A stretch of 63,686 nt of DNA, filler included, from Pseudovirgaria hyperparasitica (GCA_010093815.1; 5 parts of 4 records of this genome joined end to end with filler, not necessarily neighbours in it); one strand, 5' to 3'. Counted from the whole stretch's first letter, positions 7,198-13,253 are shown. Translations and numbers: made by a program. Notes: generated by a model from the letters alone, not told the origin.

Positions 7198-7912
7198 GAG
7201 TGATTTTTTAAAAAACTCACGCATAAAAGTCGAGTTTGCTAGACGAGTAGTTGCGCTATAAGGACGATTGTGGCGGCTATGGAACGGCGCGAGTCGGCTC
7301 GTCAAGCTGGTGGGCTCGGCTTATCCATAGCTAGCCCGGGCGACGAGTTATTTGTAAAAGAGTATGTTTTTTTGCGAATTCACTCGCGGAAATCGCTCCT
7401 ACTCGGCCAGTTTTGATGCTATTCAACTCTAAATAGGCCTGGCATGCCCCCCAAGCACCCCCCGTTCAAGCCATATAGCCATATCTTGGATATCTCAAAG
7501 AAAAAAAAACAGGTGACGCGTCACCAGGTGACTCAATGGGTGATTTTTTGAAAAACTCACGCATAAAAGTCGAGTTTGCTCGACGAGTAGTTGCGCTACA
7601 AGGACGATTGTGGCGGCTATGGAACGGCGCGAGTCGGCTCGTCAAGCTGGCGGGCTCGGCTTATCCATAGCTAGCCCGGGCGACGAGTTATTTGTAAAAG
7701 AGTATGTTTTTTTGCGAATTCACTCGCGGAAATCGCTCCTACTCGGCTAGTTTTAATGCTATTTAACTCTAAATAGGCCTAGTATACCCCCTAAGCACCC
7801 CCCGTTTAAGCTATATAGCTATATCTTAGATATCTTAAAGAAAAAAAATAGGTAACACGTCACTAGGTGACTTAAAATACGTTACTAGATAACTTAATAG
7901 GTGATTTTTTAA
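7198..7912 (+). repeat. Two tandem ~340-nt rDNA IGS sub-repeats; the rDNA array ends here
   Basis: The unit gtgattttttgaaaaactcacgcataaaagtcgag...ggtgactcaa occurs at ~7200 and ~7540. The second copy becomes RIP-mutated after ~7745, and similarity to rDNA stops at ~7912. Confidence 0.88.
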
Positions 7913-9782
7913 GAAGGTCTAAAGTAGTAAGACTTCTATTTCTACTTACGCTATCTATTAGATCTCTCTTATATAGAGTAATCTATAGTTAATCTTTAGG
8001 AATATCTATAGTATTAGTAGAGAAATAGATAGACTTAAGTAGAAATAAGCGAAAACTTAAGCCGAGCTTAAGCTAGTAGTATTTAAGGCTTATAGTAAAG
8101 ATTATAGCTTTAAAGAGTTAATTAGTTATATATATAGATTCCTTAAATTCTCTAAGTATTACTCTTAGATTAAGTTACGTAATCGCTTCTAATAGATTAA
8201 TAAAGGGAAATTAGTATTCTTAATAAGCTTACTCTACTTTCATTATACTAATATCCTTCTATTATCTAACTACTCTATAGTATAGATCTTTAAGGTTAAG
8301 TAAGTAGATAACTTTATAAAGTATTTTTCTAAACTTTCTAATCTTATTATAAGCGAAGTAGATAAAGCTAATATACTATATACTAATACCGGCCTCTACG
8401 AAGACCCTTATAACTTTTAGATTATTAAACTTATAGCTAGTAAGCTTCTTAGTATAGGTTTTACTATTCTATTATATATTAGACCTAATATAATATATAA
8501 ATAAGTAAAGTAATTCTTTAAAGATCTAGGTACTTATACTATAGTTTATATCTTACTACCGCTATATAACTCTATAGATCTTACCGGCTTTAATAATAAG
8601 CTTAAACTAGAGAGTAATCCGATTAATTTATGGTATATAGAAGTTACTACTCTCTATATATAATATAGTATATTAAGTAGGCTGGATACTTAGCCCTAGA
8701 TCTCTATTCTCTACCACGAGTTATTCGATAAGAAATTTAACTATCTAATATATATTACTATAAGTACCTTATAAGATAAATAGATAGATCTTCTATTATT
8801 CTAATTCTAAGACGTTACTATCGGGTATATCTAGCTCTTAGATATTACTTAGGCGCTCTTAGCTATTATCTATTCTATTAATATAAAAGGATTCTATTAT
8901 ATAGAACTAGGTAGTTGTAGATACCTTAAAGTAGATTTAAAGGATTATAATAATAATATATACCGCTTTAAAGTCCTTTAATTTCGTCTAGGCGTTCTTC
9001 TATTTAAATACCTTACTCTAAAAGTCTTTAATAAGGTTAGACGTCCTTCTAAAGTACCTAACATACTAATTATATTAATAGATTTAGTTACTAATATAAC
9101 TTAAGCTTATTCTAAATATTTTATTCGGACTAGCAATACTAGTTTAAGTATAATTAGATTATCCCTTACTACGCTTATAGGGTTTATAGATATTCTAGCT
9201 TTAGTTAGTATATAAACCTATAATAAGCTTACTAAGTAATATATTAATATATACTAGAAACTAACCTACTACGCTATATAAGCTTCTAGAGATAGCGGCG
9301 TAGATAACTACGCCGCTTAGAATATATTTAATATAATAGTCCTTAATGTTATTATAGACTTAGTATCTATATCTCTAATATATAGGTCCTCTAACTCTAA
9401 CGACGAGATTCTAGATTATAGTATAGAGTCTTAGAATACTCTTATTACTCTTTCTAAATTATCTATATCTCTAGATAATAATAAGGATATAAATATAGAA
9501 TATAGTCACGATATTATTAGTAATAAAGGTTCTATTACTAGCCCTATTACTAATATATATATACTTCTAATATTATCTAAAGTCTACTCTAGTATTCTAT
9601 CCCCTTTACGACCCTCTATATAGAATCTAATACTTAGTAATAACTATCTAAATCTTTAACCTATCGACTATAACCACTACGTTAAAGATTATAAAAGATT
9701 CTATAATCTCTAGAATATTATATATTTAGAACTATCTCTCTAATAATAGTATATCTATATATAGATAACGGACGTACTTAGG

Positions 9783-11955
9783 GCTTAGTTTCTACTTCAC
9801 GGCTACGGAGGAGCTAGGAAGAGCTATTTATAGCTTCGTCTACTACTAGCTATACTTCTAATTAATAAAATAAATAGTACTTCTATTATTACTTATACTA
9901 CTAAGGTAGTTATTCTATCTAGTAATATAATAGCGTATCTTCCTATACTAGGTTCCACCTAAATATATAGAATATATATATATATATATTATTATTAATC
10001 TAACTAACAAAACCTATAACGATACTATAAGAAAAGTATATAAATATATAAGTAATATATTTACTCGCTATAAGTCTCTAAAGATACCGGTTATTCTTTA
10101 AAGATACCCCGAAGCTATTAATTAAGAGGTTTTCTTTACTATAGCTAGACTATCTTATTACGGCGACCCTCTTATCGGACTAACCTAGAATAATATAATA
10201 GATAGTACTATTCTTATATAAGTCTAGGCTAACTATAGTAAATAACTATTAGAATATAGTACGGATCCCCGTACTTATCTATAGAAACTATATACTAGTT
10301 ATATTATACTTAAGATTATTAGACTTATTAAATCTTAATACTAATATAAATAGATCCCTAAGAATTTCGAGAAAGAAACGGCTTAGCTATTATATACTAT
10401 CTATAAACGTTATACTTATAATAAGGACATGCCTAAGGAGGAGTATAATAGAAAAAATAAGCTATACCTCGCTATCTAGGACCTAGTTACTATCTATGCC
10501 TAGATTTATATAGGGACCCTATATATTATAAACATCGCTAAGGTAGCCTATAATATATATCCGATTTTAGTTATAATAGAAGAGACTATATATATTCTTA
10601 AAAGTAATATACTTAGGATTATTATTAATTATACTACTATAGAATAGTAACCGATATTTATTTATGTTAGCGACCTATACTAGCTTAATATCTACTAGTA
10701 TAATAGTACTAATATATAGACCGCGAACCAGAGAATCTCCTTTATAAAGCGCTAGATATAATATAGTTTTCTAACTACTCGCCTTACCGAGTTAGAACGC
10801 TTAGTTCCTAGAATAATAAACGTTATATTACTAATTACTTACTTAGACGAGCTAACGACCTTACTCTATATAATAAATAATATTAATATAGTACTTATAG
10901 AGACCTTTCGATAAATATTTAGAATCTATAGCTATTAATATATTATATATACTAACGTTAATAGGGATTACGCGTATATAGTAAATAACTTAATATATAA
11001 TATAGACTTATTACGTTTTACTTAGTAGATTATTACTAAGCTCTTCTATTATAGTATTATACTCGATTATATACTCTATATTTCTATATACGCTATCTAA
11101 CGTAATCTATTTAAAGGGATAGTTAGGAACTCGCTTCTAACTATACTTACTATAGCGGATAAAGCTCGATTTAATACTCTATCTAAGTCGGTATAGAAGC
11201 TTATCTAATAGCGTTTATAGGACGGTTCTTAGAGTTATAATAATAATATAGTCCTTATTAACCCGGTCTAAACTAATTACTTTAGCTTTCTCTTAGAAGT
11301 AAACCGTAATATTATTACTTTTACACGCGCTAAATAGATAATAGTTATTATTACTAACTTTATATCTCTTAAGAGGTAGAGAGTTCTAGATAGTATACTC
11401 GGCGAGATATAGAATAAGTACTCTAAGATTTATATAATATATACGTACACGACCCCTAACCTAGATAGCCTCCCTCTACTCTCTAATATATCTAATCTCT
11501 AATATAGTTACTCTATACTTAGTATTAGAGAGAGGGGAGAATAAAGTAATTAATAAACTACTAATAGTACTAAGCTCTATAAGCCGCTAGTCTACCGTAA
11601 ATATAACGTTAAAGAATATAAGTCTATTAAGTATCTAAGAGGGTTAACGCTTATATATAATAACTATTAGAATATTAGCTATAAAGCTAATATTTACCCT
11701 AAACCTAAGACGCTTACAGATACGTTTTACTATAATTATAAAACTACTAGTTATACCCAGCATTATTATCCTAGCCATACTAAATTACTAGTATATATAA
11801 ATAGTAATAATCTAGTTAATACTACTAGAGCTAATACTACTAGAGCTAATACTACTAGAACTAATACTACTAGAACTAATACTACTAGAGCTAATACTAC
11901 TAATAAAGTAACTACTAGTAGCTAGAACGATAGAGACTATAAGGATACTAACTAA
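9783..11955 (+). pseudogene. RIP-destroyed UPF1/DNA2/NAM7-like superfamily-1 helicase with three C-terminal CCHC zinc knuckles (5' part probably extends upstream toward ~8000)
   Basis: Walker A HGYGGARKS at 9798 (de-RIP HGCGGAGKS). From 10561 on, one frame carries Walker B VIIEET (de-RIP EEA), VSDLY*L at ~10666 (VGDLHQL), ISFIKRL, DGS*SYNNNIVLINPV*T at 11221 (DGSQG..DIVLID) and FSFL..NR....FTRAK at 11281. Three Y-x2-Y-x4-Y-x4-Y motifs at ~11593, ~11656 and ~11728 correspond to Cx2Cx4Hx4C after reversing TG>TA and CA>TA. Confidence 0.8.
11821..11900 (+). repeat. 15-nt tandem repeat (actactagagctaat) x5, in frame in the helicase tail
   Basis: Directly visible. De-RIPped it would encode a T-A-G-A-D-like repeat. 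Confidence 0.85.
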
Positions 11956-13253
11956 GATAGCGGTATTATAATATATAAAGACATAGAAGTTAATTAGTAT
12001 AGTATATAACTAGACTTATATATTAGGGCTACTTAGTTACGGCTTCTTAGTAAGTATACCTCTATATCTATTTTAGATATAGTTATAATATTCTACTAGG
12101 TAGATAGTTTAGCTCTATTAAAGATCTATTAAGGGTATTTCTATTATATCTACTCTAGTATAGATACGCTATTAGATAATATAGCGCTACTAGGTACGTT
12201 AACTAGTACCTACTAATTATAAAATAAATATAATTCTATATCTATTATAAGCCCCGGCCTAATAATATAGGCTTCCTTTAGTTATCTCCTTTATACTTTT
12301 AAAACTACTTCTAGTCTTTATATTAGAAGATATTACTATCTAAAGAGAAAATATAAAAAAACATACGCCCTAATTAAAGCCTCTACCTTTAGACTTTAAC
12401 TATAATATATATAGGGAAAAACCTTCCTATACCCTAAGGGACTAAAACTAGTTAATTCGGGGCGATATAGCGATCTATAAACATTAATTAATAGAGTATA
12501 CTAAGTATAATAACTTCTAACATATATACGTACATATAGCGTATAATACACGACGGTACTAATATATAGAGATACTATATATATATACTTAAAAACTCTT
12601 TAGAGTAATAAGCACGGACTACCGCTAATAAACGCCGACATGCTAACCCCCTTTATTAGTTAAGGGTAGCCCTTATCTAATAATTATAGCGGCCTTAGGC
12701 ACCGCCATACCCCGGCTCTTACTAGGTATACCTCTACTACTAGTATAGTAGAAACGGCTATATAGTGGTATATTCTAGGACGACCAAACTACTATTCTAA
12801 AAGTAAAAAACGCCTAGAGATATAAAGTACTATAGATAACTAAGAAAAACTTCTCACACCCCAACGGACCAAACTGGTTAATTCGGGGCAAAACAGCGAT
12901 TTATATACATTAAACGATAGAGCACACCGAGTACAACAACCTCCGACACACGTACGTACGTGTAGCGTATAATATACGACGATACTAACGTGTAGAGACA
13001 CTATATATACGCTCGAAGACTCTTTAACAACACGAGTATAGACCATATCTAATAAACGCCGACACGCCGACCCCCTTTTATTAGTTAAGGGCTACCCTTA
13101 ACTAATAACCATGGCGGCCTTAGGCATCGTAATACCCCGGCATACGCCGGATATACCCCCACTAGTATAGTAGAAACGGCTATATAGCGACATTAATATA
13201 GATAGCTAGACACCTATCTAAAATATAGGAACTAACTAAGGGTGCGAAGCGCT

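Follow-up and report, generated by a model that had tools for sequence, protein, structure and literature searches.

In the available part of a survey of fungal transposons (PMC10799480), the helicase domains reported are PIF1, together with Helitron_like_N, in Helitrons, and DEAD/Helicase_C in AcademH and KolobokH. Helicase genes are also found in subtelomeric repeats, for which the accessible portion of a second source (10.1101/721753) describes DEAD/Helicase_C proteins, mutation of the repeats by repeat-induced point mutation (RIP) in sexual species and one Colletotrichum helicase with a zinc knuckle. Searches of the literature, of partial coverage, brought to light no fungal repeat said to encode a UPF1-like or AAA_12 helicase, which does not prove that no such description exists. 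Here, we analyze a stretch of 63,686 nucleotides from Pseudovirgaria hyperparasitica (GCA_010093815.1), in its full length referred to as the window, which contains the RIP-mutated relic of a putative gene for a UPF1-like helicase with three CCHC zinc knuckles. With a probability of roughly 0.6, positions 7917-12414 and 23042-23750 together represent one dead member of a repeat family that is dispersed in tens of copies and built around this helicase-knuckle gene. The unit would be at least 5.2 kb long and contain a single long gene of ~1,300 codons. A preliminary description of the same DNA had stated that known helicase-carrying elements use helicases of other than UPF1 type, in agreement with the PIF1 and DEAD/Helicase_C domains given in the available text of PMC10799480. 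The parts of the relic are as follows:

7917-12414, plus strand: RIP-saturated body of the helicase-knuckle relic, delimited by composition, RIP indices and even contig depth over 7831-12450 with steps on either side
8050-9788, plus strand: N-terminal coding region of ~580 codons, frame of 7902, lowest stop density
9792-9830, plus strand: Walker A shadow (L-L-H-G-Y-G-G-A-R-K-S-Y-L), frame of 7902, with R derived from G by one G>A change
9831-10100, plus strand: zone in which the frame of 7902 gives way to that of 7903, placed by stop densities and containing a (TA)n/(TTA)n run
10561-10593, plus strand: candidate motif II (P-I-L-V-I-I-E-E-T-I-Y), frame of 7903, found by eye
10657-10686, plus strand: candidate motif III (F-I-Y-V-S-D-L-Y-stop-L, compatible with G-D-x-x-Q-L), frame of 7903, found by eye
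11221-11400, plus strand: helicase motifs V-VI of the AAA_12 type (Q-G...V-x-x-N...F-x-F-L...T-R-A-K), frame of 7903
11593-11634, 11656-11697 and 11728-11769, plus strand: three CCHC zinc-knuckle shadows (Y-x2-Y-x4-Y-x4-Y) in the helicase frame (7903)
11817-11902, plus strand: 15-bp tandem repeat of 5.7 copies (TRF), directly after the knuckles
23042-23750, plus strand: RIP-like continuation of the repeat with no clear frame by stop density, ending with the scaffold

The relic is a RIP-mutated repeat, as evident from its dinucleotide indices and from copies that differ by C:G>T:A transitions. Between 8001 and 12000, the GC content is 0.26-0.28, TpA/ApT amounts to 1.5-1.9 and (CpA+TpG)/(ApC+GpT) to 0.06-0.08, while the two indices lie at ~0.6-1.0 and 1.0-1.4, respectively, in unmutated parts of the window. 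Open reading frames (ORFs) of at least 60 amino acids are absent between 6291 and 12840. The earlier claims that RIP has reached saturation here and that a six-frame ORF track misses the gene are thus borne out.

The three plus frames were translated with every stop rendered as X, and stop density was used for choosing the frame. Over 8050-9830 the frame of 7902 is favored, with 34 stops in 593 codons versus 99 and 61 in the other frames; over 10100-11980 it is the frame of 7903, with 40 stops in 626 codons versus 49 and 116. The coding look of the helicase frame is lost after ~11980. At the other end, the gene starts within ~130 bp of the left break at 7917. For the N-terminal ~580 codons, Pfam returned no family match on the stop-as-X translation. 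The change of frame at 9831-10100 may go back to an indel, a small rearrangement or an intron; CTAAC-like motifs ahead of an AG close to 10030 would fit the last of these. Contig reads are cut at 9959-10003, within the same zone. Note that a weak motif-VI-like stretch on the minus strand (10088-10023; 23.8 bits, just over the highest null score of 21.7 in the alignments described below) lies exactly there; either a short piece of another copy was inverted here or the match is a product of chance.

Standard homology searches were uniformly negative. Pfam found no family on the stop-as-X translations (three frames at E <=1, helicase frame at E <=10), phmmer yielded no match among 1.84 billion cluster representatives, and no PDB sequence matched at E <=10. 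In word-index searches, none of 7999 scored candidates passed for residues 700-1350 and none of 37 for residues 1095-1175. The absence of Pfam matches above the curated threshold is expected after saturating RIP. In a RIP-aware test, each codon was instead represented by a probability over its possible pre-RIP codons (T from C, A from G, with a higher prior at TpA) and aligned by the Smith-Waterman procedure with a profile. The main profile was built with hmmbuild on 29 bacterial AAA_11/AAA_12 helicases; its source was a set of 30 PF13087-matching loci, found in 81 of 201 genomes from a single phylum.

The V-VI site aligned with profile positions 619-681 at 44.2 bits in the frame of 7903, versus 13.6-23.8 bits in the other five frames, and includes a T-R-A-K motif at 11317-11334 in the translation. 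Among 360 null alignments (60 dinucleotide shuffles in six frames each), the mean was 15.3, the standard deviation 1.7 and the maximum 21.7 bits, corresponding to a Gumbel tail of ~2e-10 per frame. On the same profile, RIP-mutated sequence elsewhere in the window, i.e., the ribosomal DNA (rDNA) and both copies of a long interspersed nuclear element (LINE), reached at most 21.2 bits. The score is specific to mutation in the RIP direction: the site drops to 20.1 bits without RIP, it stays at 36.2-56.8 bits when the RIP priors are varied from 0.2/0.03 to 0.6/0.25, and the signal is largely lost (23.8 and 28.4 bits) under two models that allow the same freedom in the wrong direction. Frameshift-aware chaining adds only ~4 bits (49.6 versus 45.3; null 16.6 +/- 1.6, n=40).

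The Walker A block, to be compared with the pattern G-x-x-x-x-G-K-[ST], scored 12.4 bits on motif I, a value matched by 2 of 100 shuffles, and is collinear with and upstream of motifs V-VI. Another block in collinear order, with its end at 11109 and profile position 600, gave 24.3 bits, compared with a null maximum of 25.6 in 180 shuffles. The candidate motif II was not chosen by the bacterial profile, and the candidate motif III gave a collinear local match of 16.5 bits at profile positions 450-459 that is, on its own, within noise. In the block tests, the score for motif Ia was reached by 65 and that for motif IV by 25 of 100 shuffles. The best match for motif II (3 of 100 shuffles) was non-collinear and situated upstream of Walker A, not at the site recognized by eye, and the best match for motif III (7 of 100 shuffles) likewise fell elsewhere. 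A lenient-gap alignment of 93.5 bits over 9955-11424 was set aside as evidence since it had no null and misplaced motif II.

Profiles of different helicase kinds were then compared at the V-VI site. Two AAA_12 subsets of four sequences each gave 45.3 and 28.9 bits. A RecD2-like profile of four sequences, the nearest stand-in for the RecD/Pif1 clade, gave 19.8 bits, the Escherichia coli HelD profile (one sequence) at most 17.0 bits and the RecQ profile (six sequences) no more than 16.6 bits in any of the six frames, which is the null level. The stand-in was used after a search for Pif1 references that found none in 201 genomes at E 1e-30 and, at 1e-6, hits in 5 of 121 genomes that were RecD2-like in look. 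In addition, V-x-x-N and F-x-F-L, both AAA_12 features, stand between Q-G and T-R-A in the block; the motif V-VI pattern of the AAA_11/AAA_12 kind (PF13086/PF13087) reads Q-G-x-E...V-R-x-N...G-F-L...N-V-A-x-T-R-A. Judged by these alignments, the relic encodes an AAA_12-type second RecA domain preceded by a Walker A motif; the reference sequences being bacterial, this names no eukaryotic subfamily. The preliminary assignment to superfamily 1 (SF1) of the UPF1/DNA2 type is hence carried as far as an AAA_12-like second RecA domain and Walker A, with nothing beyond that level, while the contrast drawn there with the PIF1-type helicases of Helitrons and the RecQ-type ones of Academ elements agrees with 44-45 bits for AAA_12 compared with 19.8 for the RecD2-like stand-in and at most 16.6 for RecQ.

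Downstream of the helicase block and in the same frame, Tyr occupies all twelve Cys/His positions of the three knuckles, and both exchanges, C to Y and H to Y, need a single transition. The spacing is that of C-x2-C-x4-H-x4-C (PF00098 pattern), and the three copies lie within 60 residues. A cluster of at least three such patterns occurred in 1 of 300 dinucleotide shuffles; on the stop-as-X translations, Pfam gave no PF00098 match. The three CCHC knuckles had already been recognized as a RIP shadow with Cys/His changed to Tyr in the preliminary description, and the in-frame spacing confirms this.

Logan contigs of two sequencing runs, X1 and X2, both from the only sample found to contain the stretch (possibly that of the assembly itself), were compared with positions 7600-14500 at a likeness of at least 80%. 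Matching contigs numbered 9845 in X1 and 5412 in X2; those of X1 fell into likeness classes of at least 99% (2766), 95-99% (2691), 90-95% (3338) and below 90% (1050). As many as 19 different contigs had the alternative letter at a single place, and of the 489 places that varied among the contigs, 472 were transitions. We read this as at least ~10 distinct copies, with RIP as the source of their divergence. Some other copies are broken off at differing points within the unit and run on into varied other sequences. The summed depth in 20 bins over 7831-12450 averaged ~19,300 in X1 and ~8,800 in X2 and was flat (13.2-28.8 and 5.5-11.8 thousand, respectively), and stepped to 100-185 thousand for the LINE and 532 thousand for the rDNA spacer. 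The exact unitig of the window's own copy had a depth of ~235; at 8159, ~281 of a depth of 23,626 came from the variant that the window carries. Since the summed depth is ~35-80 times that of the single-copy unitig, the copy number is probably 35-80 copy-equivalents, with the caveat that depth summed over contigs does not amount to a count of copies and is inflated by overlapping unitigs. Within the window, self-blastn found no second copy of the relic. By the contig evidence, the unit is multicopy, as had been proposed; the alternative of a single-copy gene that owes its mutations solely to RIP leakage is thereby removed. The flat depth, without a 5'-truncation gradient, also argues against a 5'-truncating, LINE-like origin.

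The repeat is interrupted by an inserted LINE block, the features of which are:

12401-12414 and 23028-23041: left and right copies of a 14-bp target-site duplication, TATAATATATATAG
12415-23027, plus strand: inserted block of LINE sequence that does not belong to the repeat, with RVT_1 (E 6.9e-18) at ~16050-16724, (TTA)n tails and higher contig depth
12418-12765: LINE 5' fragment, 76% like 12845-13187 (self-blastn)
12845-18126: fuller LINE copy
18133-23033: second LINE copy, in tandem and 71% alike when compared with 13253-18126; the second copy is the more RIP-mutated

The block is a non-LTR (long terminal repeat) retrotransposon, as its reverse transcriptase, 3' simple-repeat tail and target-site duplication demonstrate. 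Within the window, TATAATATATATAG occurs only at 12401 and 23028. With a single 14-bp duplication around it, the block was either inserted as one composite unit or received a second LINE precisely at the first one's tail. Other relic copies have a loose end at 12411 (3 contigs) that reads straight into 23043-23063. Taken together with the duplication, this means that the relic continues at 23042, as had been suspected, and that other copies lack this LINE. In the contig of yet another relic copy, 8672 is joined to the LINE start at 12845, and the LINE has hence hit the relic family repeatedly. A purine/pyrimidine-collapsed search between the left end and the tail detected neither LTRs nor terminal inverted repeats (TIRs). 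The LINE ORF1 (~13950-14150) contains CCHC-type knuckles of its own, partly with Tyr for Cys/His, which are separate from the three of the relic.

On its left side, the relic is bordered by rDNA:

1102-2900: small subunit rRNA (Rfam)
3042-3195: 5.8S rRNA (Rfam)
3346-7032: large subunit rRNA (Rfam) with a group I intron at 5614-5904
7187-7916, plus strand: sub-repeats of the rDNA intergenic spacer at 7187-7536, 7528-7875 and, truncated, 7876-7916 (self-blastn, 93% between copies)

The rDNA unit (1-7032) is RIP-like as well, with a GC content of 0.38-0.43, TpA/ApT of 1.6-2.0 and (CpA+TpG)/(ApC+GpT) of 0.2-0.5. Very deep spacer contigs from the same sample carry C and G at 7748 and 7755, where the window has T and A. 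As the bulk of the spacer copies keep C/G, the rDNA in the window belongs to a copy that is displaced from the array or lies at its edge. The truncated third sub-repeat equals 7515-7555 at 41 of 41 positions in a purine/pyrimidine-collapsed, RIP-invariant comparison and diverges directly beyond 7916. The relic therefore starts at 7917 and inside a sub-repeat. The preliminary description had it begin at 7912, exactly at a sub-repeat junction; its placing of the left edge among the sub-repeats stands, the position and the junction do not. RIP-mutated spacer just left of the break (7764-7771) has a depth of 2.6-3.6 thousand, about five-fold below that of the relic, and most copies thus seem to lack this rDNA flank. 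A 71-bp piece of the spacer sub-repeat (7416-7486, 7756-7826) recurs with 87% and 77% identity at 52418-52488, in normal-GC sequence on another unplaced scaffold, where neither a tRNA nor an Rfam family was found.

We propose the following course of events. A gene with an N-terminal region of ~580 codons, an SF1B UPF1-like (AAA_11/AAA_12) core, three C-terminal CCHC knuckles and a short tandem repeat multiplied, putatively as a mobile element itself or within one, and by its multiplication the family became a target of RIP. RIP then converted almost all CpA/TpG to TpA, so that Tyr replaced Cys/His and stops replaced Gln/Trp. Given the Tyr replacements and stops, no copy seen here can still work. 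The present copy lies within a spacer sub-repeat of a RIP-mutated rDNA unit and was later split by the LINE with its 14-bp site duplication. The helicase-knuckle protein may have been the element's own enzyme, a predicted 5'-3' helicase with single-strand-binding knuckles, and the unit may itself have transposed. In other copies, the loose ends and joints are varied, a hint that these copies lie in differing surroundings.

Several observations weigh against this proposal. No domain is seen by any standard tool, and the identity of the helicase depends on a home-made RIP-aware alignment to a bacterial profile. Statistical support extends to motif I and the V-VI block only; motifs Ia and IV were not found in the block tests, and the profile's best matches for motifs II and III fall away from those recognized by eye. 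Homology searches with stop-as-X translations found no intact relative, and no transposase, nuclease or recombinase was identified in the unit. A right end, terminal repeats and a site duplication of its own were not seen up to 23750, where the scaffold stops; of the earlier reading as a multicopy and possibly mobile unit, the former part is upheld and mobility is not. As for copy number, both runs stem from one sample, and ~10-13 copy-equivalents share the RIP-mutated spacer left of the break, so that part of the copy number may come from block duplication.

Among other explanations, the one that deserves most attention, although we regard it as unlikely, is that a cellular helicase gene, e.g., of the ZNFX1/Hrr1/SAD-3 or MOV10 kind, was a passenger that was amplified passively in a larger repeated block and then killed by RIP. 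The block could have been the cargo of another transposon, a subtelomeric segmental repeat or one flanking the nucleolus organizer region, or a Starship-like element. Cellular UPF1-like helicases (ZNFX1/Hrr1/SAD-3, MOV10/Armitage) have a long N-terminal region, an AAA_11/AAA_12 core and C-terminal zinc fingers, and the relic resembles a cellular RNA helicase in its architecture of a long, apparently helical N-terminus, helicase and nucleic-acid-binding fingers. The E-E of its candidate motif II may recall the ZNFX1/Hrr1/SAD-3 group, and G-D-(P/L)-x-Q-L may recall a MOV10/SEN1-like motif III. Unlike the relic, however, the cellular helicases are single-copy host genes, with fingers that are NFX1-type or absent and not CCHC knuckles. 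That no terminal repeats are seen and that the copy sits next to rDNA on a repeat-only, unplaced scaffold would fit a passenger. The relic also shares with the TLH and yeast Y' repeats the organization as repeated blocks with helicase genes, RIP-mutated in sexual species. Theirs lie at chromosome ends, and rDNA arrays are often near telomeres. Their helicases, however, are DEAD/Helicase_C and RecQ-like, and the relic's estimated copy number seems to exceed the number of chromosome ends; the rough 35-80 copies are high for chromosome ends alone. In the same way, the accessible portion of 10.1101/721753 documents fungal subtelomeric blocks with helicase genes, one with a zinc knuckle, but these helicases are DEAD/Helicase_C, and the RecQ profile gives noise here. 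The start of the gene so close to the left break and the varied sequences into which copies break off also speak against a passenger in a larger block. It is improbable that a single spacer insertion was multiplied together with rDNA units by unequal crossing-over before that part of the array was RIP-mutated. This copy does lie inside a spacer sub-repeat of RIP-mutated rDNA, and some RIP-mutated spacer contigs share its left flank; yet the flank depth is about five-fold below the 13-28 thousand of the relic, a comparison in which any strongly diverged flanks would escape notice at 80% likeness.

Known elements account for the relic even less well, and we consider a Helitron or another known helicase-carrying element (Pif1-like or SF2) that was mistyped owing to RIP very improbable. 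Helitrons occur in fungi, are RIP targets and resemble the relic as multicopy eukaryotic repeats with a single long ORF, in which a large N-terminal region is followed by an SF1B (5'-3') helicase; this is the Rep/Hel layout. SF1 families moreover have Q-G-x-E and T-R-A motifs in common, and the comparison used a RecD2-like stand-in and not true Pif1 references. Against this stand the bit scores for AAA_12, RecD2-like and RecQ profiles given above and the presence of V-x-x-N and F-x-F-L. We know of no Helitron that features three C-terminal CCHC knuckles. The Helitron helicase is Pif1-like (PF05970) in the available part of PMC10799480, whereas the relic scores 44-45 bits with AAA_12 versus 19.8 with the stand-in. 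AcademH and KolobokH, which according to the same part of that source carry helicases and are reported in fungi, are DNA transposons with SF2 helicases (DEAD/Helicase_C); the SF2 RecQ profile reaches at most 16.6 bits on the relic, and, unlike in these transposons, no DDE transposase was identified in it. Turning to retrotransposons, the resemblance of the knuckles to those of an I/Tad-like LINE ORF1 has to be considered. The ORF1 of the I factor has three C-terminal CCHC knuckles. ORF1, however, is without a helicase, the depth of the relic is flat, and the LINE present here was inserted separately and has a site duplication to itself. Least credible of all is a single-copy host gene hit only by RIP leakage from rDNA and LINEs, or a chance pattern without any gene. 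RIP is able to spread into unique flanks, and the window holds no second copy, but many diverged contigs cover the whole relic with transition differences (472/489), the helicase block has a Gumbel P of ~2e-10 per frame, and the knuckle cluster is met in 1/300 shuffles.

A more far-reaching version of the dispersed helicase-knuckle family is doubtful, in our view. It holds that the family is a new eukaryotic mobile element whose own enzyme is a UPF1-like SF1B helicase in fusion with three single-strand-binding CCHC knuckles and a ~600-amino-acid N-terminal catalytic domain, or that it carries a silencing-related RNA helicase as counter-defense. The enzyme of such a new element might correspond in function to Helitron Rep/Hel, which joins a nuclease with a 5'-3' helicase, but with a helicase of a different lineage. 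The action on RNA silencing, already raised in the preliminary description, is pure speculation.

The remainder of the window concerns other DNA. The window consists of 5 small unplaced scaffolds that are chained by linkers of the form N44-TTAATTAATTAA-N44, in which TTAATTAATTAA is a six-frame stop spacer:

23751-23850, 41245-41344, 53614-53713 and 61360-61459: linkers
27428-27927 and 50864-50873: other N runs, of 500 N and 10 N, respectively

As the linkers separate scaffolds, features on either side of one are not real neighbors, and nothing to the right of 23750 adjoins the relic. The first scaffold (1-23750) is made up of repeats only, namely the rDNA unit, spacer sub-repeats, relic, LINE block and short tail, and no telomere repeat was seen on it. 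The next scaffold starts (23851-24600) with an 8-bp minisatellite, ATGAGGGT, in ~12 copies plus variants, followed by ~500 bp of GAACT/GGCTG-type simple repeats.

As a point of method, saturating RIP hides protein families from Pfam, phmmer and ORF finders, and mutation-aware alignment with proper nulls recovers them. If the family is indeed built around a UPF1-like helicase with CCHC knuckles, it would represent a third lineage of helicase repeats beside the Pif1-like and SF2 ones. Should its ends and its N-terminal domain become definable from other copies, it could turn out to form a new group of transposons or to exemplify gene capture with amplification in a striking manner.

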